Virus record (IMG/VR): IMGVR_UViG_3300026549_000032
Span: 154,382 to 218,381 of that record
DNA: 64,000 nt
Source of the DNA: a virus
Taxonomy: Duplodnaviria > Caudoviricetes
Direction: 5' to 3' (one strand)
Shown piece by piece: positions 1-32,209 of the stretch. The translations under genes were made by a program, and so were the position numbers. Below the pieces are notes generated by a model that was not told the DNA's origin, searched no databases, and saw only the letters and a list, made by a program, of their open reading frames with translations. The stretch's first letter is position 1, and every line of letters starts with the position of its first letter.

Positions 1-74
1 CGAGACTTAATTTCACGGGGCTGGGCCGTTGATGCTGTTAGTCTAGGAGACAAGAACCCGTATAAATACGGAGT

Positions 75-449
75 ATGCTTTGGAGGCTTGATATAATACA
101 TATCGAAGTAAACGATTGGGATCCGACCGACAAAGAAAAAGAGTTAATAGAATACATAGAAGAGCAGGGCAAAGAGAATGACGGCTATAACTACTGTTGG
201 ACTATGTACGACATGGCTCAATACTACTTAATAACTACAACAAAGAGGTGGTTAATGGAACATGGATTTGAATCCTTGATTTCTCATGCTGCCGATTGGG
301 GTTATCACTTATATTCACTCAGAATGTATCCCACTAAATTTACGGGAGAATTCTTAGATGGATTTGATAACGAGATTTATGCTGGGAAGGAAGAGATAAA
401 TAAGTGCCTCCTGAGAGGGATAGAATTAGGATATCGTAAAAAGAAATGA
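75..449 (+). CDS. hypothetical phage protein with M-x-W N-terminus (MLWRL)
   Basis: ORF track; N-terminus matches the MxW family. Confidence 0.6.
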   Translation: MLWRLDIIHIEVNDWDPTDKEKELIEYIEEQGKENDGYNYCWTMYDMAQYYLITTTKRWLMEHGFESLISHAADWGYHLYSLRMYPTKFTGEFLDGFDNEIYAGKEEINKCLLRGIELGYRKKK

Positions 450-476
450 TATCCTTTTCTTTTTCTTATAGGTGAT

Positions 477-866
477 ATGATATATAAATTTAGAATAAAA
501 CCAGAGTTAATGTGGTGGAGGTCTGGAAAAGATTATGCAACAGACAATCCACGTGACCTCTGGGAAGTAACTAATTATTTAATCGAAAGATCATTGAAAG
601 AGTTTTTCGAATATAGGCCAATGACACTTACAGCCAAATATGAGATGGAACGTACTATAGAAGTAGCCATCGAAAAGTGCATACGAGGATATACAGGTAA
701 ATGTTCTATTGAACCTGATTGGTTTGTACACCTAGTGGGAAGTTGGTATCCTGAAGCACTTTCAAATTATGGTGGGAGTATGGACTTGGTTATCTATAAG
801 CCGGAGGAGTTAAAAGTAATCATCAACTCTCTGATGGTGGCGAAGTACATGCAGAAACTCTTATAG
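477..866 (+). CDS. hypothetical protein (MIYKF), possible tail-sheath C-terminal-like segment
   Basis: ORF preceded by motif variant TCTTATAGGTG; YLIERSLKEFFEYRPMT loosely resembles sheath C-termini (weak). Confidence 0.4.
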   Translation: MIYKFRIKPELMWWRSGKDYATDNPRDLWEVTNYLIERSLKEFFEYRPMTLTAKYEMERTIEVAIEKCIRGYTGKCSIEPDWFVHLVGSWYPEALSNYGGSMDLVIYKPEELKVIINSLMVAKYMQKLL

Positions 867-870
867 GTGT

Positions 871-1269
871 ATGGAAGAAAAGAAAATAAAAGACCTAGAA
901 AAAGAACTACGAGAAGTAGACGAAAGAAGAAAAGAAATCATTAAAGAAATGGCTGATCTCAGAGCTAAGATTGCTACTAAGAAGTTTAAAGATATGATAG
1001 GAGGGTGTTATAAGCATCCTAACTATTACTGTGGCAGTCCGAGGTCAGAGCATTGGTACATATACTCAAGAATAACTGGTATCTCTGGGATGGATTCTCT
1101 AGGGGATCCGATCTACGTGACGGAATCTATTCAGAAGACTTGTGATGGAAGGATTGAATATAACCCGAATAATCATGAGACTATGAATAGTAATGACGTG
1201 GGTGGTTGGATCAAGATATCCTTTGAAGAGTTTATGAAAGCAAGAACAGAAATCTTATGCTTGACTTAA
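871..1269 (+). CDS. coiled-coil + (I/V)GK-motif paralog family protein
   Basis: N-terminal coiled coil, MIGGCY, C-terminal KISFEEF; same layout as 45689, 46093, 51260, 51675. Confidence 0.5.
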   Translation: MEEKKIKDLEKELREVDERRKEIIKEMADLRAKIATKKFKDMIGGCYKHPNYYCGSPRSEHWYIYSRITGISGMDSLGDPIYVTESIQKTCDGRIEYNPNNHETMNSNDVGGWIKISFEEFMKARTEILCLT

Positions 1270-1812
1270 ATTATAGGAACACAAACCCTGGGGACCTGGT
1301 ACAGGGGAAGAAAACAGGAACACTCCTCAGAGTCTTGAGGGTTGAGAAGGATGGCCTTTTCGTGGAGGGTTTCAAACAGAAAATTCAATACGAAGACGTA
1401 GAACCTTTCTGGATCTATCCCATTGAGAGGGTTGAAGCCCTAAAAGATATAATCATGGCTGACCCAAGAGAAGACATCGATGGAAAAGGAGATAAGAAGT
1501 ATGAGTTCTGGTTTGGGGATTATAAAGTTTTAACTTTCATGAAGTCGGTAGGTAATAAGGTTAGTGCTTCATGGAGAGAATATCTCCAGACGCCTACCAA
1601 CCTAGATATTACCACAGATCGTTTCAGTGATGTTCAAAGGATGTTCTTTGAGGCAAGTGATGGGTACAGAGAACTACCACTTACCCTTCCAAAACTACCA
1701 ACCTTAAAGTGGAGGTGTTTGGGTTGTGGTCGAGTAATGGCTGAGCCTGGACCTCATAGATGTGGTAGTAACTTCCAAAAACATCACTTGACTTGGGAAA
1801 ATTTGATACTAT

Positions 1813-1842
1813 AGGGGACGTAAAACACGTCCTTTTTCTTTT
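1813..1842 (+). terminator. intrinsic terminator
   Basis: GGACGT-AAAAC-ACGTCC hairpin plus T-tract, directly before a CCTTA-N4-TG motif. Confidence 0.7.
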
Positions 1843-1847
1843 CACTC

Positions 1848-1858
1848 CCTTACCTCTG
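1848..1858 (+). promoter_or_regulatory. CCTTA-N4-TG promoter-like motif
   Basis: CCTTACCTCTG, 2 nt before ATG at 1861; heads the unit that contains the MxW array. Confidence 0.65.
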
Positions 1859-2505
1859 AAATGAGATTTAATTTAATTTATAAAAGAATTAAAGATACAG
1901 ATCCAATAGAGATTCCTAGTCTGGTGAGGGATGATGAAGGAGGAGCATTATCAGGACCAGAAGCTTATAAAGCATTCTGGAAAGCCTATAATGAAACTCA
2001 ACGCACCATAAACGCGCTGATATATCAGTTAGAGATGGTACGTGACTCACTTAACAAGGAATCTAATCAAACAAATAATATATGCTAATCCGGATAACAA
2101 ATCAGAAACTGATTCGTGATGCACTGAATAGATTAGCAGACTTAATGTACGAAACTAATGGACACTACCTCAGGAAGGTTCTTTACGTGGACGATTACTT
2201 GTATCTAGGGCGACACGGTAATAATCTGAAGTACTCTGATAGGTTGGGCATAGTATGTGTAAAAGCATGGCAGAAAAATTGGAGAGAAGGTTACTTCTTA
2301 ATGAAAGAATTAGCGACCGTCTTAAATTCTCAAACCCTCGCTCTACCTTTCGAAGAAGTTCAGAAAAGAATCTGGCAGGAAGCTGTTAATAAACCTTCTA
2401 ATGTAGATTACCTAGAGTACTTAGATAATGCTTACATAACTGTTATGAAGTTTAATAGCATTGTGTTCAATTGGTTTTGGGCTAACTTTTTACATCACTG
2501 GGACA

Positions 2506-3012
2506 ATGTTGTGGCAGCCTATAGAAAGAAAACCTGATGTTGTTATATCTATGGGGAGGTCCTATGTAGAGGATTTCCTCGCCTCAAAAAGAAAGATGAG
2601 CGAACAAATTCCCTCCTGGACAACAATAGCTAGGTGGAGAGGTCATCCCGGAAGGGGGATAAGAGATTTTGGTTTAAATATAACAGATGCTCCTTTTACG
2701 AGAGAACTCTTACATGACTGGTGGGTACATGGAATCGTATCAAACCAGTGGAGAGGTGTCGATGGTACAAAAGCTTTGGAATTATTACCAAACAAAACTA
2801 TTCATGACGCACTCCGTGAATTTATCTACCCAGAAGTGAGTGGTGATTGGAGTGCTAGAGAGGAAAGAGAGGAGAAAGCTTTTGCGTTAGCAATTGTTAG
2901 GATAGACTCTCTATGGACTAAGTTTTGTGAATATTTTATAATTAGAAGATTAATATATGATAGAGTACAAAGAAGGGAACATTTTCACATCTCTAGCGCA
3001 GACTATTACTAA
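2506..3012 (+). CDS. hypothetical protein, MxW family (MLWQP)
   Basis: In-frame ATG at 2506 within ORF 2461..3012. Confidence 0.55.
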   Translation: MLWQPIERKPDVVISMGRSYVEDFLASKRKMSEQIPSWTTIARWRGHPGRGIRDFGLNITDAPFTRELLHDWWVHGIVSNQWRGVDGTKALELLPNKTIHDALREFIYPEVSGDWSAREEREEKAFALAIVRIDSLWTKFCEYFIIRRLIYDRVQRREHFHISSADYY

Positions 3013-3586
3013 TACAGTAAACCTGATGGGAGTCATGGGAGCTGGCTTGGCGTTAGTCCATAAAGCCATATTTCCAAGGATGTATCAAACCTACAGGGAC
3101 TACTGTAAGGCTGGTCAATTTAAAGCAGGTCAGCTTTGGGTATGGGATCAGTCCTGGAAATGGCAGGTCTTAAACTTCCCGACGAAACGACATTGGCGTG
3201 ATTGGTCAGAGATCCCTCTCATCGAAATGGGACTAATGAACTTAGTGAGAACGTATCAGGAGAGAGGAATAACTTCTCTGGCAATACCACTCCTGGGTTG
3301 TCAGAATGGTCACCTGAAAGAGAAGGATGTACTGCCAGTCATGGAGAAGTGGTTAGGACAGATGAATATCCCCGTAGAAATATGGAGACGAAATCCTGAT
3401 GCCCCAAATCCAATCTGGAATGAGCTTAAGTTTAAGTGTTCGGCAGGGAAGACAACTTTCGAGAGAATAGTTCTGGAATGTGAATCTTTCGAGGACTTGG
3501 TTAAACGACCAGGTATAGGAAGAGACTCTTGGGCTAAGGAAACAGGTAAAATACTAGGGATAGAGAAAGATGATATTCAGAATTAA
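2957..3586 (+). CDS. macrodomain protein, DarG/Poa1p-like ADP-ribosyl glycohydrolase
   Basis: GNIF, NTVNLMGVMGAGLA, NFPTKRHW and SLAIPLLGCQNG are canonical macrodomain motifs. Confidence 0.85.
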   Translation: MIEYKEGNIFTSLAQTITNTVNLMGVMGAGLALVHKAIFPRMYQTYRDYCKAGQFKAGQLWVWDQSWKWQVLNFPTKRHWRDWSEIPLIEMGLMNLVRTYQERGITSLAIPLLGCQNGHLKEKDVLPVMEKWLGQMNIPVEIWRRNPDAPNPIWNELKFKCSAGKTTFERIVLECESFEDLVKRPGIGRDSWAKETGKILGIEKDDIQN

Positions 3587-3716
3587 TAATGATATATCTG
3601 ACCTTGTCGGTTGGTATAACGGAATACCTGTCATCCGAGTAGATCGAAGGGAATTGAAAAGAAAATATCTGACCTTCTTGACGATGCGAGATTTATTCGG
3701 AGTTCAGTTTATATGA
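3570..3716 (+). CDS. 48-aa micro-ORF MIFRINNDISDLVGWYNGIPVIR..., capsid-like segment
   Basis: Manually translated; ATGA overlap with the next ORF; GxYxGxxV motif shared with 28169, 30160 and 32210. Confidence 0.6.
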   Translation: MIFRINNDISDLVGWYNGIPVIRVDRRELKRKYLTFLTMRDLFGVQFI

Positions 3717-3823
3717 AGTGGAAATTGAAAACGATAATTGCATCTTGGAAAGGGAAACAGCCCGTATTCCATGCAGAAAGATTTCCATTTCGTTTCTGGA
3801 ATGAAATTTGGTTACCGGGATGA
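3713..3823 (+). CDS. 36-aa MxW micro-ORF (MKWKLK)
   Basis: Manually translated; ATGA overlaps at both ends. Confidence 0.6.
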   Translation: MKWKLKTIIASWKGKQPVFHAERFPFRFWNEIWLPG

Positions 3824-3987
3824 TTTGGAAAATAAATCAAACAGAAGAAATTGGGTACTCTATAACCCATGATAGACCTGTCTATAATTTTAGAAGGGAA
3901 TATGGCCAAACAACTAGTAGCAATATATCTGATTGGTTTAAAGAATGGTATGGGAAGTTAAAAATACTAGAAGGAAACTTAGAGTAA
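3820..3987 (+). CDS. 55-aa MxW micro-ORF (MIWKIN)
   Basis: Manually translated; ATGA overlap with the previous ORF. Confidence 0.6.
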   Translation: MIWKINQTEEIGYSITHDRPVYNFRREYGQTTSSNISDWFKEWYGKLKILEGNLE

Positions 3988-4127
3988 CTGTTAAGATACC
4001 TTTTGGCAAAGTATCATCCAATGGGATAATATATAACAGTGAAGCTCTTCTTGAAGCGATCAAAAGCTGTAATGGCCTAGGAGAGATAACTCATAAAAGT
4101 TCTGACGGACTATGGTTTGGAGTATAA
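3945..4127 (+). CDS. 60-aa MxW micro-ORF (MVWEVK), prohead-protease-like segment
   Basis: NGIIYNSEALLEAIK...LGEITH resembles T4 gp21 NKRLYPKRILEKAV...LGELNHP. Confidence 0.6.
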   Translation: MVWEVKNTRRKLRVTVKIPFGKVSSNGIIYNSEALLEAIKSCNGLGEITHKSSDGLWFGV

Positions 4128-4345
4128 GCCAAGAGGTATTGTTTAGTGAAACCGTCGATAGATTCATGGGAGAATGGCAGAAAATACTTAGAGCGAGTAT
4201 GCGTGCCTTCAGTGCTTCCATGACAGTTGACTTGAATCCAAAGAATATAAACTATGTCACGAAGACTTCGACAGGAACGTGGATTCCAAGTCAGTATGAC
4301 ATAGATACGACTTTGGGAAATAACAATATAGGATATTCGACATGA
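4112..4345 (+). CDS. 77-aa MxW micro-ORF (MVWSIS)
   Basis: ORF track; LFSETVDRF is shared with the next ORF (LFSRKVDRF). Confidence 0.6.
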   Translation: MVWSISQEVLFSETVDRFMGEWQKILRASMRAFSASMTVDLNPKNINYVTKTSTGTWIPSQYDIDTTLGNNNIGYST

Positions 4346-4503
4346 CTTGGGAAGTAAATGCGATACTGTTTAGTAGGAAAGTTGATAGATTCTCTACTAA
4401 ATTTAGAAGCTCTTTCCGAAAGGCAATGATGCTTTCCTACATGTATGGTGGGGATGGACATGTCGTATTTGATTACGAAACAGCAGGATGGAGTGGAAGT
4501 TAG
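4342..4503 (+). CDS. 53-aa MxW micro-ORF (MTWEVN)
   Basis: Manually translated; ATGA overlap; paralog of 4112. Confidence 0.6.
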   Translation: MTWEVNAILFSRKVDRFSTKFRSSFRKAMMLSYMYGGDGHVVFDYETAGWSGS

Positions 4504-4742
4504 CGAAACTAGGAATGCCTAAGCGTTTTTATGATAAGTTAGTCAGAGATGGGAATATAATATTTGCTCCCTACATGCCACTAACTAGTACGCCAACCAT
4601 AGGCAACTTCAGCAATCCCGCGCAAACCGTAAATACCAAATATTATTGTGCGGATACTACTATCTGGTCTTCTAAGAAGATACATACTATCCGTCCCTGC
4701 ACGCTTGACGAGGGAGGAGATAGTGACGTTAGTGAAACATGA
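4488..4742 (+). CDS. 84-aa MxW micro-ORF (MEWKLA), major-capsid C-terminal-like segment
   Basis: IIFAPYMPLTSTPTIGNFSNP resembles the gp23-family YAPYxPL...NFxP motif. Confidence 0.65.
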   Translation: MEWKLAKLGMPKRFYDKLVRDGNIIFAPYMPLTSTPTIGNFSNPAQTVNTKYYCADTTIWSSKKIHTIRPCTLDEGGDSDVSET

Positions 4743-4909
4743 CTTGGAACTTTTCAGACACAATGACCATGGCGATAGAACAGAGGGGAAAGATGGGAAG
4801 AGGTCCTAAAAGACCTAACCTACTCTACTGTTTTAAGACTTGGGTTGAATTGAAAGAGAAAAATGAAACGCTTTTCAAGGCGTGTGAGAAGGAGCTTTTG
4901 AGGAAATGA
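4739..4909 (+). CDS. 56-aa MxW micro-ORF (MTWNFS)
   Basis: Manually translated; ATGA overlaps at both ends. Confidence 0.6.
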   Translation: MTWNFSDTMTMAIEQRGKMGRGPKRPNLLYCFKTWVELKEKNETLFKACEKELLRK

Positions 4910-5010
4910 TTTGGAGGATCAATCCAAGAAAACGGACAAGGACTAGTGGTGTGTTTATCTTGACCAAGGATGGACTTAAGCCTATAAACATTCCGAGGAC
5001 ATGGAAATGA
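4906..5010 (+). CDS. 34-aa MxW micro-ORF (MIWRIN)
   Basis: Manually translated; ATGA overlaps; contains ILTKDGLKPI. Confidence 0.55.
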   Translation: MIWRINPRKRTRTSGVFILTKDGLKPINIPRTWK

Positions 5011-5132
5011 AGTGGAATATAGACATAGATATTTCAAAAGTCCTCCGCCTACGGAGATTAGAATTGATGATGTTTGAGTATTACATTAATCATGATCTGG
5101 GACGTATTAATCGAAGAAATAGGACTTGCTAA
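5007..5132 (+). CDS. 41-aa MxW micro-ORF (MKWNID)
   Basis: Manually translated; ATGA overlap. Confidence 0.55.
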   Translation: MKWNIDIDISKVLRLRRLELMMFEYYINHDLGRINRRNRTC

Positions 5133-5217
5133 ACTAACCATCACTACTTCAACTAAAACAACAACTCATACATGTAAGTTGACGTTAATAACCTCCAGCG
5201 ATGGTGTTAAACGTTGA
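5092..5217 (+). CDS. 41-aa MxW micro-ORF (MIWDVL)
   Basis: Manually translated. Confidence 0.55.
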   Translation: MIWDVLIEEIGLAKLTITTSTKTTTHTCKLTLITSSDGVKR

Positions 5218-5225
5218 AAGAAGAT

Positions 5226-5435
5226 ATGAGGTGGGAGTTTAGTGAACTGGTTAATAGATATGTTAGTCCTCCTATCCCAACACTAGATGATATGTCTAAC
5301 TTAACCTTCTGGGAAAACACCAACAGTAATCTCAGAGATGGGATAAAGGCATACAAACAATTATTACACGTTTACAATGCTTTGGGAGTTAAACCTGATT
5401 TTGAAACCCATCCTGTGGTGGGCGAGGGATTCTGA
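5226..5435 (+). CDS. 69-aa MxW micro-ORF (MRWEFS)
   Basis: In-frame ATG at 5226 within ORF 5214..5435; VYNALGV is weakly portal-like. Confidence 0.55.
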   Translation: MRWEFSELVNRYVSPPIPTLDDMSNLTFWENTNSNLRDGIKAYKQLLHVYNALGVKPDFETHPVVGEGF

Positions 5436-5643
5436 GATTTTCATAGTAGACAGAACCACAGATCCGGTCACCCAAGTAATAGAAGATACAGATGCAGCCT
5501 GGAATAGCTATCATGAATATCAAGCAAAGTACGGGACAAGACTCTTTCCAGAGTACCCAAGCAGGAATGACTGGTATTTTGCAGTAGCTATGACTATGCT
5601 TGAGAATGGTGATTATAAACTAGAAGTATGCAGTGGGAAATAA
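5377..5643 (+). CDS. 88-aa MxW ORF (MLWELN)
   Basis: ORF track. Confidence 0.6.
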   Translation: MLWELNLILKPILWWARDSEIFIVDRTTDPVTQVIEDTDAAWNSYHEYQAKYGTRLFPEYPSRNDWYFAVAMTMLENGDYKLEVCSGK

Positions 5644-6011
5644 GAATAAATCCTAAGAAGTCAGCTAAGATACTAAATGATGAGGTGAGACTGATGGATA
5701 TGATCCTAGAAGCTGAGAAAACTGGAGTTCGTCCAGACACTCTCTACTTTAAAAATCCTTTCGGCGGAAATAACCTTGATTACTCTCACTTCAAAGACCT
5801 ACAGTCTTGTAGAGACAGGTGGGACGATGTTGAAGAACTAATCCTTAGGAAAAATGTAGTCATGCATAGTTACGTCGCAACTGTCGGCAGGAACTATGAA
5901 GGCTATGTCAAGTTTCTTAAGAGATGGAAATGTGATAGGAGTATAATCTCTGAAGAGAACTTTAATAAGTGGTGTGATGAGGTGGAAAATAGATCAAGCG
6001 AAGATGTTTAA
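5628..6011 (+). CDS. 127-aa MxW ORF (MQWEIR)
   Basis: ORF track; C-terminal YEGYVKFL..SEENF resembles 6965 YENYITYF..TEEEF. Confidence 0.65.
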   Translation: MQWEIRINPKKSAKILNDEVRLMDMILEAEKTGVRPDTLYFKNPFGGNNLDYSHFKDLQSCRDRWDDVEELILRKNVVMHSYVATVGRNYEGYVKFLKRWKCDRSIISEENFNKWCDEVENRSSEDV

Positions 6012-6084
6012 TATGTACTTTGAATATTTTCGCGATAAGATCTTCAAAGCAGCGAAAATTCCAAAAGAACGTTTTAGTCAATGA
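5977..6084 (+). CDS. 35-aa MxW micro-ORF (MRWKID), portal-like segment
   Basis: EYFRDKIFKAAKIPKERF resembles the T4-like gp20 D(I/V)xYFxxKLYxALxVPxSR motif; ATGA overlap with the next ORF. Confidence 0.6.
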   Translation: MRWKIDQAKMFNMYFEYFRDKIFKAAKIPKERFSQ

Positions 6085-6194
6085 CTTGGAAGCTCTATGA
6101 CACCCCAGAAGACAAGGCTAGGTTTGCTTTGTGGAAGTTCTTGAAGGACGAAGCATTTAAGAAGCTATGGAATGGAAACTCACCGACGACCTAG
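6081..6194 (+). CDS. 37-aa MxW micro-ORF (MTWKLY)
   Basis: Manually translated; ATGA overlap. Confidence 0.55.
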   Translation: MTWKLYDTPEDKARFALWKFLKDEAFKKLWNGNSPTT

Positions 6195-6340
6195 AAGGGA
6201 ATACTCGTTTGATTCTGAGAAAGTACACTGGGTTGAAACTTACTGATTCAGTGAAGGCTAAAATGGAAGAAGACATAAAGAAAGCCGTTATCACAGAATG
6301 GTTAAAAGGCGGGCTTAGTTCGTTATGGTCTGGAAAGTAA
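6167..6340 (+). CDS. 57-aa MxW micro-ORF (MEWKLT)
   Basis: Manually translated; ILRKYTGLKLTDSVKAKM is weakly sheath C-terminal-like. Confidence 0.55.
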   Translation: MEWKLTDDLEGNTRLILRKYTGLKLTDSVKAKMEEDIKKAVITEWLKGGLSSLWSGK

Positions 6341-6435
6341 CTAATGTACTAAGACCACATCAGAAAGAGTTTTTCGGTTGGCTTAAAGGAGAAGTAGAAA
6401 AGAAAATGCAGGAATTAATAAAGTTGGGTATCTAA
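6325..6435 (+). CDS. 36-aa MxW micro-ORF (MVWKVT) with a Q-motif-like LRPHQKE
   Basis: Manually translated; last ORF before the terminator at about 6424-6450. Confidence 0.55.
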   Translation: MVWKVTNVLRPHQKEFFGWLKGEVEKKMQELIKLGI

Positions 6436-6450
6436 TCCCAATTTTATTTT

Positions 6451-6461
6451 CCTTATTCGTG
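6451..6461 (+). promoter_or_regulatory. CCTTA-N4-TG promoter-like motif
   Basis: CCTTATTCGTG, 1 nt before ATG 6463, directly after a terminator hairpin. Confidence 0.65.
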
Positions 6462-6964
6462 TATGATTAAAATATTAATTTCAGAATTACAACAGAGAGA
6501 GGACAACTTTGCGAAGATGCGCGAGTTGACAACAAAAAACGATGAAATCCGCGATCATGTCGCCTTTCTAGTTAGTCAGACCAACTTGAGAGGCTTGATT
6601 GTGGGAAAACTTGGTAAGACTGCCGACTTTGATCCTGAGGTCGATGAGTTTGAGATTATCGGGTATGAGAAGTCAGAGGATGCTAAACAAGTCAGATTTA
6701 AAGTCAGCGTTAAAAAGAACGAGATGGACTTAGGTCGAGCAAGAGCAACTATGCTTGATGTTCGTCTGACGGACTGGATTGACTTATGATCTTTCGTCTG
6801 AACAAAAAAGCGGCGGACTTATACTACTGGACCATGGGTTATAGGCATAGGAAGGGATTACTTCTCTTACAAGCTAAGCCAGGAGAGCTGTTTAAAGAGT
6901 TCTTGGTGGATGACCCAAGGTATTCTCTGAGAGGAATTGCTAAGAGAGTATTAAGGGTTGGGCC

Positions 6965-7423
6965 ATGATTTGGAAAGACGTAGCTTTTACTTATAACTTC
7001 ATTAACGAGGAATACTTAGCTATAGAAGTTATCAGGAACGAAAAAGAAACGGCAGAGGAATTGGGATATAATCCTTGGGGAATGCTAAGTAAAGTTAGCC
7101 TGGATGACGGACTTTGGTCTCAATTTCTTGGAAGATGCTACGAGACAATCGGAAAAGCACCTAGAATCAGGAGAGACTATTTCAACAGGCTCTTAGATAC
7201 TATAATGCCTGATCCGAAACTCATGTTTCATATGCCCATTGTTACTAATCTTTATACTTGTACGGAAGATTTTATCACAAACATGGGCTACTATTCGACC
7301 TATGAGAACTACATAACGTATTTCACTGGAAAAGGGTGTTGGAAGAAAGCCCTAATGACTGAAGAAGAATTTACGAATCTGTCTAACCTGATTAGTACTA
7401 CTTATGATACTAGAGAATCATAA
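6965..7423 (+). CDS. hypothetical protein, MxW family (MIWKD)
   Basis: ORF track. Confidence 0.6.
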   Translation: MIWKDVAFTYNFINEEYLAIEVIRNEKETAEELGYNPWGMLSKVSLDDGLWSQFLGRCYETIGKAPRIRRDYFNRLLDTIMPDPKLMFHMPIVTNLYTCTEDFITNMGYYSTYENYITYFTGKGCWKKALMTEEEFTNLSNLISTTYDTRES

Positions 7424-7986
7424 AATAGACGACTATAGTGATGATAGCATAGTCTGTGGATATTGTCCAGAGAACTTAAGGGAAGAGGAATTAAAGACTT
7501 TTGTTCCTCTTTTTACTGTTATCCAATATGACATAGGACTCCTGCGAGGACAAGAGTGGGAATCTGGAACTGGCTTGGAATGGTTTGTCTGGTATAAGAA
7601 ACAAGAGAACCATTGGACCTATCCGGTCTCCACAAAACCAGACCCGTTTTATACATCAATGGACGCCGACGGTAAAATGGTCCGTGGATTTGTTGATGAT
7701 AGATACTATCGAATTCACATTCTCTCTATAAGTGGTGAAGGAGATAGATACTCTTCGTACGGCGGAGTTTCACTAGTCATAGATAGGTGGAATGGAGAAC
7801 CGCATGTGGTAGGGATTGGTGAAGATGATGGTTGGTTCTTTCCAGAGACTCTCTATTGGAGGAACTTAGACAAAGAAGGAATCAATAAGTGGGAACTCTG
7901 GAGACTGTGTCAAGCTGTAGGAGATGTTAGGTGGGAAGCTTTCGGTGAGGAAGAAGACTACGGACAGAAAATAAAAGATTGGTTGT

Positions 7987-8433
7987 ATGGTTTGGGGAAT
8001 AAGTAATGTTTGGATAACCTATGCCATGTACCAGGGATACAGAACAGTTCCCATGAGAAGTGACCTGGATATCTTTGAAAGGTCTACTAGGGATAGTGGA
8101 AAGCTACTTAAGATCTATATGGATGAACTAAAGGAACACTTTCCAAAGGCCTTTGAAGAGAACCCTTTGATAGGAACTTATAATAGTCCATATCAAGAGA
8201 GTTTTGAACAGTACAACCTTCGGTACCTAAGGTACATGAGAATATTCTCTTGGAACTCGGACCTGAGGGCAGCACTGTGGGATACTTACAAATACTCTGT
8301 CATGATTCCCTACAGGAAGAACAAACTTCTACGAAAGCTGGCAAAGGAATGCAATAGAACCATGCGAAGAGAACCAGACTTTATCAGGTACATCTTTAGC
8401 AGAGAAGACATAACTAAGTATAAAGTGGTATAA
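7987..8433 (+). CDS. hypothetical protein, MxW family (MVWGI)
   Basis: ORF track. Confidence 0.6.
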   Translation: MVWGISNVWITYAMYQGYRTVPMRSDLDIFERSTRDSGKLLKIYMDELKEHFPKAFEENPLIGTYNSPYQESFEQYNLRYLRYMRIFSWNSDLRAALWDTYKYSVMIPYRKNKLLRKLAKECNRTMRREPDFIRYIFSREDITKYKVV

Positions 8434-8450
8434 TTAAAAAAAATACAAGT

Positions 8451-8867
8451 ATGTTGTTAATAGTAATGATTATTTTCTGGAGTATTGTATTAGTAGGACT
8501 CTTAGGATACACATTAATTAGTGAGTACAAAGATTGGAGAAGAAAGAAAACTATGGAAGCCAACTTAGAATACCCTCCTAAGACGCCCATCAAACTTTTC
8601 GCAGTCAAACATGTCCTTCATTGGAAATTAGAGGGAGATGATTTTGACATGGGAAAGGTGAAGGAAGCTAAGAAGGAGTGCATCAGGTGGCTTAATGCGA
8701 CGATCTATAAGGAACCTGGACTGGAGAGTATAGTAGTAGTTTCTCCAGAAGACCTAAACAAATGGAGAGACAAGTTCCGTACCTTAGGCGATATGAAGGC
8801 TTGGATAAAGGAACAGGACGAAATACTTGCCGAATACATAAAGATCAAAGAAGGAAACTTCGAATAG
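8451..8867 (+). CDS. N-terminal membrane-anchored hypothetical protein
   Basis: Hydrophobic N-terminal helix followed by a basic stretch. Confidence 0.55.
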   Translation: MLLIVMIIFWSIVLVGLLGYTLISEYKDWRRKKTMEANLEYPPKTPIKLFAVKHVLHWKLEGDDFDMGKVKEAKKECIRWLNATIYKEPGLESIVVVSPEDLNKWRDKFRTLGDMKAWIKEQDEILAEYIKIKEGNFE

Positions 8868-8869
8868 GT

Positions 8870-9172
8870 GTGAACTGGCTAGGGGTAAGAGATAAGAGAG
8901 TAATTTACGAATATCTTCGCCTGTACGACGATAAGTTCAACGACGGACTAGACAACATCTACGAACAAAGCGCTCTTGAGATTGCTCAGTGGTTTGAGAA
9001 GAGATGGCCAGATAAAGAGCTAAAGTCGAAAGGAACAGTTGCTCGAAGCTTATTGTATACTTTCGGTTACAATCAAATAGGAGACGTCTTGGCTGAACTA
9101 ATAATCGACATAGAGGCATTGGGCAGAGCTTTTGAAGAAGAGATCGTACCAGAAGCAAGGGGTTGGATATGA
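8870..9172 (+). CDS. MxW family protein (GTG start, MNWLGVRDK)
   Basis: In-frame GTG at 8870; paralog of 9169 (MNWMRVKNK). Confidence 0.5.
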   Translation: MNWLGVRDKRVIYEYLRLYDDKFNDGLDNIYEQSALEIAQWFEKRWPDKELKSKGTVARSLLYTFGYNQIGDVLAELIIDIEALGRAFEEEIVPEARGWI

Positions 9173-9474
9173 ATTGGATGAGAGTTAAGAATAAGGACGT
9201 AATCACGGTTTACGTTAATCTCTTCGAAGAGATCCAACCGAAAAGAGCTGGAAAGATACTTCTCGATTGTTTCCAAGATAATGTAGAGGACTTAGTAGAA
9301 TGGCTCAAGGTGGAAAGACCAGATATAGACATAACTAACCCAATAGGTAACTTAGAGGGAGATAAGAACATAATCGATGCCTTATGGTCGGTGAGGTCAA
9401 TCTGGGATGCCTTCCTGGAGAGGATCGTAGAGCCGGTTAATGATGAACTGCCGGGGATGGTGCCAGTAATGTGA
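9169..9474 (+). CDS. MxW family protein (MNWMRV)
   Basis: ATGA overlap; tandem paralog of 8870. Confidence 0.55.
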   Translation: MNWMRVKNKDVITVYVNLFEEIQPKRAGKILLDCFQDNVEDLVEWLKVERPDIDITNPIGNLEGDKNIIDALWSVRSIWDAFLERIVEPVNDELPGMVPVM

Positions 9475-9504
9475 GATGACTAAAGGCGGTCATCTTTTTT
9501 TTTT
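9474..9504 (+). terminator. intrinsic terminator
   Basis: AGATGAC...GTCATCT hairpin plus long T-run. Confidence 0.75.
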
Positions 9505-10030
9505 GGAGTTGGGAGTTTCCGTGGATCGACGTCTGGAGCGAAGCAGAAGACAGAGAGGAACAAAAGACATGAAAGACAAAGAGGTCCCGCCCACCGCGCC
9601 AACTCCACATGCTCCGCCTAATCGGCTACACATGTTCCGCGCCCGGGACCTCTAATGGGAAAAGGCCTTCGGCCAATCCCAGATGGATACTATGGGAGAT
9701 TATATTGTCTCGAGCCTGAACGAAGTGAGGGCGAAGAGAAAAGAAAACAAGGTAATTATTTTTTTAGGGTAGATAACCATTACATAGGATACTGGTAAGT
9801 TTTATCCTTAAAAATAATTGATCTCTAGTAGAAGGTATTTCTTTAGGTAATTTTGCGTAAAAATACTCTATATAGATATCTGTGTACTTTTACCCTTAAA
9901 AGTAACTATTTCTGGAAGGTATTTTTAGTAAGGTGGGGGATTTGGTTCGATTTTGGCTAATTTTGTCTCTATATAGGCCTAAATCCCCCATATTTTTAGC
10001 CTCAAAATTAATGAAAACCTTATACATGTA
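9505..10030. other. structured non-coding region (inverted and direct repeats), possible origin, ncRNA or element end
   Basis: 10-bp IR AGAGGTCCCG (9580)/CGGGACCTCT (9644); GGCC-TTC-GGCC hairpin; imperfect direct repeats TTTTAyCCTTAAAArTAA..GAAGGTATTT; IR TGGGGGATTT/AAATCCCCCA. Confidence 0.45.
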
Positions 10031-14343: not shown

Positions 14344-14726
14344 ATTACTTTTCGTTTAAGCCAAAACTTATTAGCATGTTTCCACTGTCCTTCCTTATTG
14401 TCCATGACTGGTTGAACACTAACCAGTTCCCAACCAAGTTCCCCATACTCGTTGAGGTCTTTCTCAGTTATGTTTAGTCGGGTTATGTATTCGAACTTAT
14501 CAGGCCTTCTACTGTAGTTGGAGGTTATGCTGGATCTGAAATTCCACTTATCATCCCAATCTTTAAACTCTCCATAGACTTCAGTCCCATCAAGTTCTTC
14601 TATGGTTAGTCCATAATGACCTGGTCCATCTTTTATTCTAGCTACACGACTCGGACCATAATACTGTTTTTTGATAGGCTGTTTCTCTTCTTTACTCATG
14701 ATCCCGTTCTGGTGCAGTAATGCCAC
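14337..14726 (-). CDS. DUF4177-like domain protein
   Basis: KFEY...LNEYGELGWELVSV...FWLKR. Confidence 0.55.
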   Translation of the reverse strand: MALLHQNGIMSKEEKQPIKKQYYGPSRVARIKDGPGHYGLTIEELDGTEVYGEFKDWDDKWNFRSSITSNYSRRPDKFEYITRLNITEKDLNEYGELGWELVSVQPVMDNKEGQWKHANKFWLKRKVIW

Positions 14727-15556
14727 TCAGTCAGTTCCTCAATCTTCTTCCAGTCTTTGTCACTGGGGTTGCTACAATCATCAGCCCAGAAGTCCATGCA
14801 ATCACCATCCAAGTCATTGGGAGTAGTGGGAATTTTGACGGAATTGGTTTTGAGGATTTCGTCGAATGGAGGAAAGTCCTTCTCATGTTCCTCTAACCAG
14901 TCCATTAGACCGTAATCCGCGAAGTTAAATCTGGCACTATAGTATAGGAAGTCTTTCTGCCTATCTGTTTCGAACCAAGACTTGCCTTCATCGTTGGTGT
15001 AAGTCCGGAGAAAGTTCTCCTTATGGTTCTTTTCCCATGGCTTCTCAGGATCAGGAACGATGGCTTTTACCTTCTGAATTACACTCACCACATAATTTCT
15101 GAACTCCTGAATTAATGGAGTTGGTGTCTCAAGTTCTGGGTAATATTTATACTCATGCTGCTTTCCGTCCCACTCAAGCATTTTTATTGCAATCTCAGGG
15201 ACCTTCGGATCAAAGAGGTAGTTCAGAAGTGTATCCCAGTAGACTTTATTCTTGTTAACGGGGTCAGGGCAAGCTCCCCATATTTCTCGGTACATATCAT
15301 TTTCATCCTCTTTGAAACCTGGGGCTTGGTAAGAATCTTCATAAACCCAATCCTCTTCTTCACCCTCTTCAGCCTTTTTCATAGCATCCTTGAGACTCTT
15401 AACCCACTCTTTATAGCGGTCATAAGAGAACTGGATAAGTCTAAAGAATGGGATCTTCTTCTTTAACTCCTCAAAGGTAATACCTTCCTTTGGTCCACAT
15501 ATAAAGACCTCAGTCGAGGAGTTAGTAATAACGTCTGTCTTACTTTTGATCTTCAT
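14696..15556 (-). CDS. TNSS-leader family protein 1
   Basis: N-terminus MKIKSKTDVITNSSTEVF. Confidence 0.65.
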   Translation of the reverse strand: MKIKSKTDVITNSSTEVFICGPKEGITFEELKKKIPFFRLIQFSYDRYKEWVKSLKDAMKKAEEGEEEDWVYEDSYQAPGFKEDENDMYREIWGACPDPVNKNKVYWDTLLNYLFDPKVPEIAIKMLEWDGKQHEYKYYPELETPTPLIQEFRNYVVSVIQKVKAIVPDPEKPWEKNHKENFLRTYTNDEGKSWFETDRQKDFLYYSARFNFADYGLMDWLEEHEKDFPPFDEILKTNSVKIPTTPNDLDGDCMDFWADDCSNPSDKDWKKIEELTEWHYCTRTGS

Positions 15557-16313
15557 TTCTTTTCTTGATTATATGATTCTTTGTATCTAATTCCCAAATC
15601 TCGTTTATGGCAATCTCATCCATAAACTTCTTCACCTCTTCTGGAGTGGCTGGTCTTATATCATCCTTATCCATTATAGTCAAGGGACCATCTATCGCCC
15701 TGTCTAGTTGGAATCCACCGTCGTAGGAAGGATGATAGGTAGAGATTTTCTGTCTATCCTTTGATAACATGAGGACAAACCTAATCCCTTTGTAGGACTT
15801 TGTGAGTCGTTCCATGCTTTTATCGAAGAAAACTGTTACCATAGAACCATCATTTGGGAGACTCTCAACCAGACTCTGCATTCTTTCCTTATGCTTCATC
15901 TCTTTCCAGTCGTCGACCAGACTTCGTCCACCACATTCGGTATCATGAGATCCGAAAGCATAGCCAACGAGGTCCTTGTAATGATGTTTGGTCTTTTCCC
16001 AAATTTCGTCGATGGTCTGCCCTGGGTAGTCATAGAGGAAGTTTCCTTTCTCTTCCCATGGGTCCTCATCTGGGAGGGGAATTTTATCTATGTTGCCTGT
16101 TGACCACAAGTCGTTCCAAGCCCAACCTTTATAATCACGATCGGTTATGGTTTCCTTTAAGTCATCCAATGTATTAACTTCCCAGAGATCTAGCTCTTGG
16201 CCTTGTTCTTTAATCCAAGCCTTCATGTCGAAGTAGTCTTTGTCCATCTTGAATATGAACACTTCAGTACTACTATTCGTTATAACATCCGTTTTAGATT
16301 TAACTTTTATCAT
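15540..16313 (-). CDS. TNSS-leader family protein 2
   Basis: MIKVKSKTDVITNSSTEVF from ATG 16313. Confidence 0.65.
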   Translation of the reverse strand: MIKVKSKTDVITNSSTEVFIFKMDKDYFDMKAWIKEQGQELDLWEVNTLDDLKETITDRDYKGWAWNDLWSTGNIDKIPLPDEDPWEEKGNFLYDYPGQTIDEIWEKTKHHYKDLVGYAFGSHDTECGGRSLVDDWKEMKHKERMQSLVESLPNDGSMVTVFFDKSMERLTKSYKGIRFVLMLSKDRQKISTYHPSYDGGFQLDRAIDGPLTIMDKDDIRPATPEEVKKFMDEIAINEIWELDTKNHIIKKRNEDQK

Positions 16314-21391: not shown

Positions 21392-24300
21392 GAAGATAAC
21401 AGACAATTACGTACTCTTAGGTGATGATGTAACTAACGAAGATCAATCAGTAGAGCTGAGAGAAGCAGGATTAGACCTCTCTATAGCAGACCATACTTGG
21501 CGAGTAGTTTACTATGACAGAGAACTAGACATGGCAGATTGGGAGGTTGAGAAAGTTGAATACCGTCAGTCAGAATTTATCATTCAGGCTATGGGAAAAG
21601 ATCCAACTAAATCAATATATCCCGCCTGGTCATTACTGTCTCTTATGTCTTGGGTAGCTACTAAAGGAGAATGGACATTAGTATCGAATGGTACACTGAA
21701 GTTTAGATATAATGATCCTGGAATGTCTGGGATTACTTTGGAAAGTCCTAGAGAATGTGACTTATTGAATTTATTTGTGCAATTAACGTTAAAATTATTA
21801 AAGAAATAGGCATGATCGATAAAGTATATATGACCGACTCTACTTTAAAAGAGAAGGAACTTAAAGTATTGGGAACTGATCTTTTTAGGTCAGACTTAAT
21901 CCTTGTAGATGTCGGTAATGGAACCTATGAACAAGTTAGTGCTAGATCCCTTGCTTACGGTGGCAGGTATTCATATTTTCGAAAGGACGGACTTGTGTAT
22001 CTATCTGCTAAGCCTGTTCCCTCTGGGAGTCAGCGTTTAGATAAATTAAGACTTGAGGATAGGATTTCTTTTATACTAGTCGATAAATTTAACAACGGTG
22101 CATTTTTCTTAGAAAGAAAATCTGAATCTAGTTTAAAAAGTACAGAGTCATCGTATAAAGAAATGAAAGCTAGAGTCTTTATCTTCCGTGACCCAGATAG
22201 ATTACACAGATTTCTATTAGAGGAGGATCTGTGGGAGGATATGGTTAAGAGAGTAGATGCTGAAGTAGAGAGACGAAAAGAGAAAGTCAGAGAGAAAAAG
22301 ACTTTAACCGAAGATGAAAAGAAATTCTTAAGCTCTCAGCAATCAGGATCCCTAGAAGAAGGGAAGACATATTATGTAAGTTACGGACAACAGATAGAGA
22401 AAATTACTATTAAAGAGAAACTATTAGAGAGTGGTAATCTTTATCTCCTCGACAATGGTAGGTACTTCAGTTGGTGTTATGGACGTATTTATAATATGCC
22501 GCCGTTGGAAAATATGAGGCCTATTCCCGTAATAGCAGACTTAGCAGATCCTAATAACTATTTAGAGGATTCATTGGAAGAAGCGAAGGATAGATTAAAA
22601 ACTCTCAAAAGTTTCTTTGACGATCCATGGAAGAAGGATACCTTGGATGTTCGAGTACTAGGAAAATCAAAGATAATGAAATCTATTAAGAAGAAATATA
22701 ATTATAGAATTTTTATAGAATGAGTTTTGGCTCATTCTTTCTTTTCACTCCCTTAATTTTGTATGGAAAGAATAACAGATAGAAAATGGTTGCAGAAAGA
22801 AAACAACCTAATAGGAAAAACGCTATGTATTATCTGTAGAGGATTTAATGGTGTAAATCCCGAAGACGGTGTGCACACCCTTAGATTCTCTAGCACAGAG
22901 TATGCTATTGATGTAGAGAGGATTGATCCTGATCATATGAAGGCAGTTGACTATATCTATGGCAAGAATGTGATTATAGTTGACTGTGCGCCTCCTACAT
23001 TAGAGAGGGAAACTCCATCTATATCAACTACAGACTGCTTGATCATTGACTACTTCCACCCAGGCGAATTTGAGAAGTATGAATACTACATCATGACTAG
23101 GGAGGAAGCCATCGAGCAAATAAAGAATTATAATCAGCAAATCGTTGGTGACTTGTTTAAGTTATGAAGAAAATACGAGTTGGCTTTGGTACTAATGGAG
23201 ACATCTACGAAGACTTAGAGAAATGTAAAGCTTGTAACTTCTGTACTCACTTTATGGGTTATGGTCTTCATTGGTGCGCTGGAAAGTGCCTTAAGAAGAA
23301 CAAAGAGATAGAGGGCGGTTATACTGGTAATTACAGGAAGACTGCCATGGAATGTGACTCCTTTGATTGTAGGCCAGACCTATTAGTAGATGTGTAGATA
23401 CAAGGTTAAGCACAAGTGTATTAAACAGGACAGTTACTCTGGGTTCTTGGATGGAGAGGTTTATAGTATTGAACCTGCCAAGGGACTTGAGAGTTGTGCT
23501 GTTCTAGTGAGAGGGAAACTTGTGGTAGAAGTTAATGGGAAAACTACAATCACCGAAGGAGTTGTAATTCCGAACGATGTAATAAGTGAATATTTCAAAG
23601 TAAATGTTGATAGATAAGATTTGTAGCTTATTTAAAGGCGACGAAGAAAAGATAGTAATATTTGATAACAAATATTCGATAAAAGACCTGGATAAGATAC
23701 GAACAGGAAAGAAGGAAGATTCAACCTTAGAATTTCTTGAGTCAGATCTAGATTATATCTGTGATTGTTCAACGGTTCCCTTCTTTGAAGATTACAGGTG
23801 GACATTTAAGAACAAACAAACTGGTCAGAAGGTCGATGTCTATGTTAGGTATAGATCTGATCCAGGAACTATAGAATTTATGGATGGACAAGATAGTATA
23901 CTCCTATATAAATTAAAATCATGAAACCAACAGTAGCATCAATTTTATATCTAGTATTTATTATAATCCTATTTATAACATACCATACTCACAATTCTGA
24001 CTTTGAATCCACAGTAGTCGGATTGCTTGTTATAATTGGGTGTCAGAATTTCAGTAGTCAAACTAATAATAACAGATAATATGATAGTAAAAGAACCGTT
24101 TACAATCGAAGGCTACTTAGGCGGTTATAAAGACGCAACAGTAGTCGACAAGAAAGGAAAGAAGGTCGATGTAGAAGGCCTGACTCTTCACGAACTTTCT
24201 AAGAAGCAGGAAAAGGAAGAACTGTTCTTCCAAATAGAAGTCCCAGACAGATCTCTATACCTCGTCAAAAATACAGAGGTGTCAGACCGAGCCAAAGATT

Positions 24301-27377: not shown

Positions 27378-27779
27378 ATGCTGTTTAAAAGTCAATACGA
27401 TATTGGTCAAAGTGTGTGGGCAGTTCAGCAACAATATGAACCTGTTCGTAACGCCTGCAAGCTTTGTCATGGAAAAGGAATGGTTCAGATAGTTGGCTCA
27501 GAAAAACTAGCCGTCTGTCCAGAATGTAAAGGACATGGTTATTTCGACGGTGGAGCCATTTATCGATGGGTTCTTGGCATACACTCAGTGGTCGGTCAGA
27601 TTAATATTAAAGCTGTAAAAACACCTAATAAAGGAATTATTACGACAGTTGAGTACATGCTGAGAGACTCTGGAATTGGAAGCGGGTCTATTTGGAAAGA
27701 AGATCAACTCTTCTTGACAAAAGAGGAGGCCGAAGCCTACTGTGATAGAATGAATGAATTGGAAAGTTCTAGCAAGTGA
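27378..27779 (+). CDS. DnaJ-type zinc-finger protein
   Basis: Two CxxCxGxG repeats (CKLCHGKG, CPECKGHG). Confidence 0.6.
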   Translation: MLFKSQYDIGQSVWAVQQQYEPVRNACKLCHGKGMVQIVGSEKLAVCPECKGHGYFDGGAIYRWVLGIHSVVGQINIKAVKTPNKGIITTVEYMLRDSGIGSGSIWKEDQLFLTKEEAEAYCDRMNELESSSK

Positions 27780-28164
27780 TTCGGTATCGCTGGCCTTCAG
27801 AGAATCCATAAAATTCTATAACAGCCTTTGGAAAAAGGGTTTAGGACCGTATCCACCATATGTAGCAGGAGAGTATGTCTGGCAAGACATACGATTGATT
27901 CCTGGAACTAATATAATAATATTAATTCCTTATGACTACCAAGATGGTACGTACGGAGTGATTGGGGAATTTGATGGCTGGAAATATGTGCAACCAATCT
28001 TAATTACATGTATTGCTGAATTACATAGATATTTGAATGTGGTTAGTAATGATATCTACAAAGCGTTGGTTCATATACTGAGCGAACATACTGCGATAGT
28101 AGCAGATTATTCAATCTTAACTACAGATATTCCAGACGCAATACCTATAACGAGCAATTATTGA
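27754..28164 (+). CDS. MxW family protein, weakly capsid-segment-like
   Basis: MNWKV; YVAG and IGEFDG motifs. Confidence 0.45.
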   Translation: MNWKVLASDSVSLAFRESIKFYNSLWKKGLGPYPPYVAGEYVWQDIRLIPGTNIIILIPYDYQDGTYGVIGEFDGWKYVQPILITCIAELHRYLNVVSNDIYKALVHILSEHTAIVADYSILTTDIPDAIPITSNY

Positions 28165-28168
28165 TAGT

Positions 28169-28789
28169 ATGAAGTGGAAAAAGAAAATAAGATTCGAAAG
28201 GTTTGTTATTAACCTAAGAGAATTAGATGACGGTTGGAAACCTAAGGAGACCCTCGATTCCATGATAATTAAGGCTGAATGTAAGCTGGCAATTAAAACA
28301 GTTAAAGGAAATAGTCCAAATCTGATTATAGCCGGATCGAGACTCCTAGAAGAGTTTAAGAAGAGTAGCCTATGGGATGACACCCTTAGCATTAACGTAC
28401 TAGGGCCTATACCAGCTACAGATATAGTTAATGAATTTGGAACTGAATGTGAAGGATTCTACAAAGGGATTACTGTTTACTCTTCTGATGATATCCCAGA
28501 TAACGAAGGGTATCTAATAGGAAACTGCTCTGGTGTTAATCATGGGCCTGGAATATTGAGGTTAGTTTGGGAAGATGGTACTGAACCAGATAAGAAAGTC
28601 TCTATGAAACTAAGCCATCTTGAACTAACTATGCTCTTGGATTCTCCTAGATTAACCACTAGATTGAGAGAATACTTACTAGAGAAAGACCTCGGTTTCT
28701 GGGGAAAGGCTGGATTTTTCAGAAAGTATAACTGGGATCATTTCTCAACAGAAGAGTTGCTTGAAATCTATCAGGCAATAAAGGAGTAA
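28169..28789 (+). CDS. MxW family protein with gp23-like capsid segment
   Basis: LAIKTVKGNSPNLIIAGS...EGFYKGITVYSSDDIPDNEGYLIG resembles gp23 IARQTGRGEGNFIIAS...GVLGGKYRVYID. Confidence 0.55.
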   Translation: MKWKKKIRFERFVINLRELDDGWKPKETLDSMIIKAECKLAIKTVKGNSPNLIIAGSRLLEEFKKSSLWDDTLSINVLGPIPATDIVNEFGTECEGFYKGITVYSSDDIPDNEGYLIGNCSGVNHGPGILRLVWEDGTEPDKKVSMKLSHLELTMLLDSPRLTTRLREYLLEKDLGFWGKAGFFRKYNWDHFSTEELLEIYQAIKE

Positions 28790-29909: not shown

Positions 29910-30197
29910 ATGACATTGATAATTTACATAGTTGTTGCTTTCATCAATGTTGTACTTCACATACTCAGAAGCATACTAGTTATTAAGTCAGGTAAACTCC
30001 TGGCTTCTTTTGCGAACTGTGTCTGCTACACATTCTCGGCCGTTGTTATAAAGTTTATAGCAGAGGTTGATCTCATGACAGCCATTATTGTACAGGCGGC
30101 CACTAATTTCTTAGGATGTTGGGTTGGTATGACCCTCGGTGACTGGATAACAGAGAAATATGGTGTTCAAAGATTTAACAGCAAGAATAACACTTGA
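29910..30197 (+). CDS. small multi-pass membrane protein
   Basis: About 3 hydrophobic helices. Confidence 0.6.
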   Translation: MTLIIYIVVAFINVVLHILRSILVIKSGKLLASFANCVCYTFSAVVIKFIAEVDLMTAIIVQAATNFLGCWVGMTLGDWITEKYGVQRFNSKNNT

Positions 30198-31857: not shown

Positions 31858-32209
31858 AAAAGAAAAGAGATTATACACCCCTAACAAGGGAATATTTCGA
31901 GAAAGCAGGCTATGACATTAAACTCGAGGATAGAGAGCCTTTAATGCCAGGACTTGAACCTTGGAAAGAGTGGGTTGCATACCTGAATAGGAGCCTAGAC
32001 AATGGTGATGAGGTCTATATTAAAGGGTATGTCACCAACTCAATGTACGAAGGAAGATTTGTCTTCACTGGTAACATAGGAAGTGACTTGCATGCTTGTG
32101 TTAGACTTTATACAGTCAATGACCTAATGAACTTATACGCTTTGGGTCATATAACACCAGATTTTAAACAAGTTCATGATAAACCCTATATAAACAAGGA
32201 TATTAAAAT

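Follow-up and report, generated by a model that had tools for sequence, protein, structure and literature searches.

An array of 18 small, mostly overlapping genes in the genome of a large, uncultivated phage encodes proteins that share a five-residue N-terminal tag and carry mostly unrelated sequences behind it. The array occupies positions 3570–6435, on the plus strand, of a 64,000-nt stretch of DNA (the window; bases 154382–218381 of the 218,381-bp virus record IMGVR_UViG_3300026549_000032, about 60% complete according to CheckV). All starts and frames are as claimed in an earlier, sequence-only reading of the window: 17 of the 18 open reading frames (ORFs) start with ATG NNN TGG R, and the remaining one, at 3570, starts with MIF. 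The motif in the array is Met-x-Trp-(Lys/Glu/Asn/Asp/Ser/Arg)-(Ile/Leu/Val/Phe). We propose that it is a short N-terminal docking motif on varied cargo and that its coding DNA also serves as a recombination joint, a reading to which we give slightly less than an even chance.

Conservation of the tag points to a constrained peptide

Conservation was counted over 22 ortholog families in up to seven genomes. Residues 1 and 3 vary in none of the 22 families, and residue 5 varies in three, between Ile and Val only; variation is seen in seven families at residue 2, in nine at residue 4 (always polar for polar) and in 11 at each of residues 7 and 8. The tag, which the sequence-only reading had proposed to look for in related phages, is retained there. 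At the DNA level, the sequence logo of tagged starts reads ATG RNN TGG RAN NTN. In codon 4 the third base is free, and in codon 5 so are the first and third; the middle position of codon 5 is an invariant T, so that this codon encodes a hydrophobic residue. Upstream of the tagged starts, only a purine at −3 is conserved, with no Shine–Dalgarno sequence. Variants with Phe or Tyr at residue 3, found outside the array (TTY and TAT codons), have the same K/R-then-hydrophobic context. Free wobble positions and Phe and Tyr variants argue for selection on the peptide rather than on the RNA, and the conservation pattern as a whole points to constraint at the amino-acid level on a Met-x-aromatic-polar-hydrophobic peptide.

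The density of such starts far exceeds chance, as the sequence-only reading had argued from the run of Trp3 codons. The sequence ATGNNNTGGRRNNT occurs 22 times in the window, always on the plus strand and 17 times within 3713–6338, compared with a mean of 2.7 ± 1.6 and a maximum of 8 in 100 shuffles. Trp makes up 1.7% of all residues. Across the genome, ATGNNNTGGR peaks in the 150–170-kb bins only, and a count of Trp3 on a rough set of 314 predicted genes, the genome-wide comparison suggested by the sequence-only reading, showed it to be uncommon: there are no such genes in 0–100 kb and one in 100–140 kb, with the rest at window positions 75–36948. Trp at position 3 is therefore no genome-wide habit.

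The array ORFs are conserved coding genes

A metagenome scan and two contig look-ups yielded six related loci with DNA (L011–L016). L011 is near-identical to the array, and L012–L016 are mosaic, with 55–100% protein identity per cassette. Contigs of 236 and 420 kb carry relatives from this lineage. In these six loci the ORFs, their lengths, starts and order are retained, with frames whose lengths are equal or almost equal, and most of the array ORFs appear among the public gene calls for the relatives. A 61%-identical homolog of the 127-aa member lies on a contig whose called genes match the array gene lengths. The ratio of nonsynonymous to synonymous substitution rates (dN/dS) ranges from 0.05 to 0.58 per cassette; when pooled, it is 0.21 in the annotated frame versus 0.99 and 1.12 in the other two frames. 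Frame-specific dN/dS and the conserved ORFs therefore identify the array ORFs as protein-coding genes under purifying selection, whose translation is predicted.

Codon usage alone is equivocal on their status, with a mean score of 0.004 for the array ORFs, between the 0.093 of real gene pieces and the −0.16 of spurious ORFs. These intermediate scores would fit chance open frames or a decayed pseudogene, but ORFs, lengths and starts kept at 55–100% protein identity in six loci, together with a dN/dS near 1 in the off frames only, leave that explanation hardly any probability, and we count it as already refuted; decayed pseudogenes in particular are excluded by the frame-specific dN/dS. An alternative genetic code or a frameshifted long gene was also rejected. 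The pieces are separately conserved, each with its own start, and no stop reassignment could join them because neighboring ORFs lie in different reading frames. A phage-supplied tRNA-Trp was dropped as an explanation, as the record has no tRNA genes.

Whole cassettes turn over at the tag

Among the seven genomes we identified at least three whole-cassette events, every one with its borders at the tag, which bears out the suggestion of the sequence-only reading that cassettes are gained and lost, and adds replacement. L012 is without cassettes 5007 and 5092 (named here by start position) through a deletion exactly between two 9-nt ATGAAGTGG repeats; at its junction, the upstream flank of 5007 is followed by ATGAAGTGG and then by the body of 5226. 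In L012–L015, cassettes 4739 and 4906 are separated by an additional 44-aa MKWKV cassette. In L012 and L014–L016, one 44-aa MIFDL cassette stands in place of the first three, beginning after ATGATATTY, and in L016 cassette 6325 has a different cargo downstream of MVWKVTN. Sub-families of tags (3820/4906/5977 and 4739/6081) are alike over as many as 27 nt, beyond which similarity ends. Breakpoints are also found within cargos, so general recombination between relatives is active too.

In L013 (positions 9465–9520), the ortholog of cassette 5092 is shortened after a ten-A run, which reflects either an error of assembly or a real frameshift and so decay of the cassette.

The tag is separable from its cargo

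That the sequences after the tag are mostly unrelated was also upheld. When ortholog profiles were trimmed of their first six residues and compared with hhalign, only 4112 and 4342 were linked (80%), all other pairs scoring ≤12%; no homology was detectable along the protein bodies in the array except for this pair. The paralogous pairs that we identified are 4112/4342, 3570/6786, 8870/9169 and 28169/32210, the others lying outside the array or including the tag region. The proteins encoded at 28169 and 32210 have one common alpha/beta domain behind different tags. The proposed architecture of a constant N-terminal tag on unrelated cargo is thus supported, with its constraint on amino acids and its retention in relatives.

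An AlphaFold2 (AF2) model of the 127-aa member (mean predicted local distance difference test (pLDDT) score of 75) is helical over residues 13–125, with pLDDT of about 71–91, and coil over residues 1–9, with pLDDT below 50. In this model, the tag is predicted to lie outside the folded domain. The model had no match in the PDB with E ≤ 0.001 by Foldseek and no usable match in the ESM Atlas; a wide VIA-align search gave a best Z of 6.1 to a helical model, which is within noise.

Homologs of a 206-aa protein starting with MKWKK provide a deeper comparison. An exhaustive HMMER search found four cluster representatives only. Those at 49% and 38% identity start with MEWSN and MDWKN, and their next ~25 residues cannot be aligned. 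In a 30% homolog (P0012), the called start coincides with the first strand of the domain, with no extension before it, and the in-genome paralog at 32210 has MIFSF on a 16-residue extension. Taken together, these starts indicate that the motif outlasts its diverged surroundings and that the domain can exist without the motif.

Organization of the array

The first gene of the array, at 3570, overlaps the Macro-domain gene before it by 17 nt, the single case of this length. Overlaps with the preceding ORF within the array are 4 nt (ATGA) at seven junctions, 16 nt at four and 28–59 nt at five. ORF 5226 follows its neighbor after an 8-nt gap, and the same junction is an ATGA overlap in L011 and L014–L016. 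The equal 16-nt overlaps fall at cassette ends 4127, 4503, 5643 and 6340; the upstream proteins at these junctions end alike ([WC]-[SF]-G-x-stop) because their last codons are the tag of the next gene read in another frame. Four array ORFs have alternative upstream starts in the window (3808 TTG, 5001 ATG, 5214 TTG and 5974 GTG), and at all four the tag ATG is retained in every relative.

Cassette 1 (3570–3716; 48 aa, MIFRI) carries the Phe variant and is a paralog of 6786. It is followed by 3713–3823 (36 aa, MKWKL; ortholog dN/dS 0.09), 3820–3987 (55 aa, MIWKI; similar over its first 27 nt to 4906 and 5977) and 3945–4127 (60 aa, MVWEV; dN/dS 0.09–0.17). The tandem paralogs come next, at 4112–4345 (77 aa, MVWSI) and 4342–4503 (53 aa, MTWEV; dN/dS 0.08), and lead to 4488–4742 (84 aa, MEWKL; dN/dS 0.28–0.36), 4739–4909 (56 aa, MTWNF) and 4906–5010 (34 aa, MIWRI; dN/dS 0.09–0.18). 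Cassettes 5007–5132 (MKWNI) and 5092–5217 (MIWDV; dN/dS 0.28) both encode 41 aa and precede 5226–5435 (69 aa, MRWEF; dN/dS 0.23–0.29) and 5377–5643 (88 aa, MLWEL; dN/dS 0.05–0.09). The largest member, with its modeled helical domain, is 5628–6011 (127 aa, MQWEI), and the array closes with 5977–6084 (35 aa, MRWKI), 6081–6194 (37 aa, MTWKL; dN/dS 0.06–0.13), 6167–6340 (57 aa, MEWKL; dN/dS 0.26–0.58) and 6325–6435 (36 aa, MVWKV), whose protein is identical in L012–L014. All of these are on the plus strand, as is the Macro-domain gene (2957–3586; 209 aa, PF01661 E = 7.5e-9), the last untagged gene before the array and part of the same predicted unit.

A composite element, consisting of a terminator-like hairpin, a T-rich tract and CCTTA-N5–9-ATG, precedes at least 30 operon-first genes on both strands genome-wide and looks like a phage-specific terminator–promoter or start cassette. 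Examples in the window are at 428–476, 1813–1860, 6417–6462, 22720–22762 and 32610–32647. The plus-strand copy at 1813–1860 (hairpin at 1813–1835, T-rich tract, CCTTA-N8-ATG) is the likely start of the unit containing the array; the copy at 6417–6462, also on the plus strand, has a hairpin at 6417–6448 followed by TTCCTTATTCGTGT-ATG and would end this unit and start the next. Between 3586 and 6416 we found no such hairpin or CCTTA motif, and intergenic DNA is likewise absent. Because these elements flank the array with none between, the array and four upstream genes appear to make up one unit of 22 overlapping cistrons, and we predict that the array belongs to a single polycistronic unit of roughly 4.6 kb (about 1861–6448). 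The regions upstream of tagged genes are less A-rich than those of other genes (0.35 versus 0.42 A, P = 0.003).

Tagged genes beyond the array

About 35 genes at window positions 75–36948 start with M-x-W/F/Y-polar-hydrophobic; they fall into three blocks, and all encode ≤206 aa. The further M-x-W sites and M-x-F/Y variants listed in the sequence-only reading are all correct, and two variants extend its list, at 27378 (MLF) and 36526 (MVY). Tag block A, within 75–9474 on the plus strand, contains M-x-W genes at 75, 2506, 6965, 7987, 8870 (with a GTG start) and 9169 and M-x-F/Y genes at 477, 1861 and 6786. Tag block B (27378–32608, plus strand) has starts at 27378 (MLF), 27754 (MNW), 28169 (MKW) and 30160 (MVF) and MIF starts at 30519, 31495 and 32210. 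Two adjacent tagged genes, MVYSI (84 aa) and MVWNF (55 aa), lie at 36526–36948 on the plus strand. Untagged overlapping genes elsewhere in the window start with MKK, MSK, MTE and similar sequences, so the tag is no general habit of initiation.

A second, longer N-terminal tag (TDVITNSS) is present on at least 11 proteins of the genome, as [KR]-S-[KIR]-T-D-[VI]-I-T-N-S-S-[ST]-E-V-[FY] within the first ~20 residues. Its genes in the window are 14696–15556 (−), 15540–16313 (−), 38561–39100 (+), 40113–40487 (+) and one at about 39015 (+); further copies are at G000 positions 104554, 105062 and 105510 (+) and 138260, 139023 and 139547 (−). Three of these proteins compared by BLASTP are otherwise unrelated.

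Genome setting

Most large proteins of the phage match no family in Pfam or PHROG, and the same two collections assigned no family to 20 tagged or neighboring proteins. The identifiable genes encode the Macro-domain protein, a nicotinate phosphoribosyltransferase, a reverse transcriptase, TelA, two IMPDH-like proteins, a ClpC-like AAA+ protein and a ClpP-like protease. The ClpC-like double-AAA+ unfoldase (900 aa; G000:80030–82732, minus strand, locus L005) has ClpC/MecB as its best solved relative (E = 4.6e-144), and a search of 5.8 billion proteins with its N-terminal 245 residues found only itself. At a distance of 2 kb from this gene is that for the ClpP-like serine protease (G000:84895–85431, plus strand, locus L017), which matches Pfam at 2.8e-61 and also PHROG head maturation proteases at 1.6e-36; it could be a true ClpP partner or a head maturation protease. 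ClpS (PF02617) was not found in the 60%-complete record.

Shine–Dalgarno use is generally absent genome-wide, with genes averaging −1.5 kcal/mol versus −2.5 kcal/mol at random positions. The sole part of the genome with clear Shine–Dalgarno-like sites, which are depleted elsewhere, is window 56745–59402. There, GGAGAACA-ATG is present three times, and AAGGAGG-type sites lie upstream of genes 57091 (+) and 59217–59402 (−). The reverse-transcriptase gene (window 62168–63511, minus strand; RVT_1, E = 1.5e-7) is near the end of the record, and a weak Radical_SAM match (26.6 bits, under the cut-off) lies at G000:75284–75487. The nicotinate phosphoribosyltransferase gene, for NAD salvage, is at window 52159–53373; this enzyme has been reported for gastrointestinal jumbo phages (PMC11662467). 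Sample names suggest rumen or gut metagenomes as the origin of the close relatives.

Other searches returned little. The phage collection gave no match to the array region by blastn or to a 514-aa protein of the large-gene region by tblastn, and only distant matches to a 688-aa helicase-like protein. No relatives were found in IMG/VR scans with the Macro protein, the 127-aa member and the 6965 family or in two genome-contig scans, and Rfam gave no match at gathering score in window 1–10000.

Discussion

We propose that each tagged gene is a cassette of a five-residue N-terminal motif and an unrelated cargo of 30–200 residues. The motif would be a short linear peptide outside the folded cargo, an extended strand in which Trp3 and the hydrophobic residue 5 point to the same side. 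Through it, every tagged protein would dock on a single shared reader, of phage or host origin, by which these proteins would be sorted, loaded, held or removed as a class. The motif-encoding DNA would be the short repeat at which whole cassettes are deleted, inserted and swapped, keeping the array fluid between related phages. Binding of the motif by a common partner is plausible.

Several observations weigh against this proposal. No partner for the motif was found, and a specific docking motif of only five residues would be very short. Trp has a single codon, which makes RNA and peptide selection inseparable at residue 3 alone, and residue 2 is Val or Thr in some genes, where Met removal would give heterogeneous N-termini. 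The AF2 evidence is one fair model (pLDDT 75), the model of the 206-aa protein being poor (mean pLDDT 56.7); the start of the tag-less homolog P0012 depends on a gene call; and the relatives with DNA are all fairly close, the deeper ones being known as single proteins only. The less A-rich upstream regions would also fit a role in expression for embedded, leaderless cistrons.

That last point belongs to a broader alternative, in which the first five codons are an expression element, acting as RNA or nascent peptide, for initiation or re-initiation on buried cistrons that have neither a Shine–Dalgarno sequence nor an A-rich leader. The genome-wide absence of Shine–Dalgarno signals, the lack at array starts of both this sequence and the A-rich context of other genes, and the overlap of 16 of the 17 M-x-W starts with the preceding ORF are all expected under such a role. 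However, conservation tracks codon structure, with free wobble bases and NTN at codon 5, and Phe and Tyr codons take the place of TGG with the context unchanged. Elsewhere in the window, dozens of genes overlap just as much yet are without the motif, the variants at 477 and 1861 sit directly after promoter-like motifs, and the five overlaps of 28–59 nt are long for re-initiation; we consider an expression element unlikely, though a serious contender. The motif might instead be a relic of tandem duplication of one ancestral mini-gene, its N-terminus kept for structure in each protein with no common partner. The clear paralogs and the sub-families of tags alike over up to 27 nt speak for common descent, whereas the cargos vary in length between 30 and 200 aa, comprise both helical and alpha/beta types and, once trimmed of the tag, have no profile similarity. 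In addition, the one fair model places the tag outside its confidently folded domain, and similarity ends sharply after 23–27 nt although the cargos are under purifying selection, which fits recombination better than slow divergence. We judge such a relic about as unlikely as an expression element.

Recombination alone could also maintain the motif, as a joint of DNA microhomology with no protein role. The borders of insertions and deletions (indels) at the motif, including the deletion between two 9-nt repeats, are what this would produce, but about eight scattered constant bases are weak for recombination, and Trp3 is unchanged in 22 families while its neighbors drift. Such constancy calls for direct purifying selection in every gene, and a joint with no protein role strikes us as very improbable.

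A more specific form of the docking proposal is that Met-x-Trp/Phe/Tyr-x-hydrophobic is a phage-specific address label for a phage-encoded machine, such as the ClpC-like unfoldase with the ClpP-like protease, so that clearance, remodeling or capsid loading of ~35 small early or accessory proteins would happen jointly at a fixed time, and new cargo genes would be joined at those very codons. We regard this scenario as a speculative one with little probability as yet. The unfoldase and protease are candidate motif readers in the genome, and because the ClpP-like gene matches both ClpP and head maturation proteases, the degron and capsid-loading versions both remain. A complex prediction of the ClpC-like N-domain (residues 1–250) with the 37-aa cassette scored 0.00, which is no answer and counts neither way. 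Degrons and adaptor tags of AAA+ proteases (the ClpS N-degron, ClpX N-motifs and ssrA) likewise mark unrelated proteins by a few terminal residues, and the combination of aromatic, basic and hydrophobic terminal residues resembles them in a phage that encodes ClpC-like and ClpP-like proteins. The ClpS N-degron is a Leu, Phe, Tyr or Trp at the free N-terminus, read by ClpS; here, in contrast, the encoded protein has its aromatic residue at position 3.

The sequence-only reading held that no described system has this layout, which is too strong. The capsid-targeting sequence (CTS) of phage T4 is a constant N-terminal tag on diverse internal proteins (PMC3012670). As with the tag described here, a short N-terminal peptide is the sole shared part of diverse, fast-changing small phage proteins, and both loci are polymorphic between related phages. 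The prohead protease cuts the T4 CTS at a conserved Glu, in an (L/I)-x-E site. The present motif has five residues versus about 10 in the CTS, with no conserved Glu or fixed residue after position 5; it also has about 35 carriers, of which 17 belong to a single overlapping operon with an early rather than structural look. Repeat-mediated shuffling of small early genes has been described for PeSLs (PMC2839356), in which the repeat is an intergenic promoter plus a terminator stem-loop. The likeness is that small non-essential genes of a hyperplastic region are gained, lost and replaced through short repeats at gene borders; here, the L012 deletion, the MKWKV insertion and the MIF replacement are bounded by a short repeat, and the genome has hairpin-plus-CCTTA composite motifs at operon starts. 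In contrast to PeSLs, the repeat consists of codons 1–5 and is under constraint at the peptide level. The tandem arrays that paralogous small genes form in jumbo phages are similar back-to-back runs in very large phages, but the bodies of the present proteins are not detectably homologous, the first five residues alone being shared. The literature searched contains no description of a Met-x-Trp start common to phage proteins, an absence that is weak evidence.

Most small early phage genes are without known function, and a five-residue label on ~35 of them offers a handle for their study. If a common reader exists, the tag would be a second independent case, after the T4 CTS, of a constant peptide that addresses a changing accessory repertoire, and one sequence would combine a sorting signal with a joint for the recombination of gene cassettes. 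With a second tag in the same genome, peptide addressing may be widespread and under-described in large phages.

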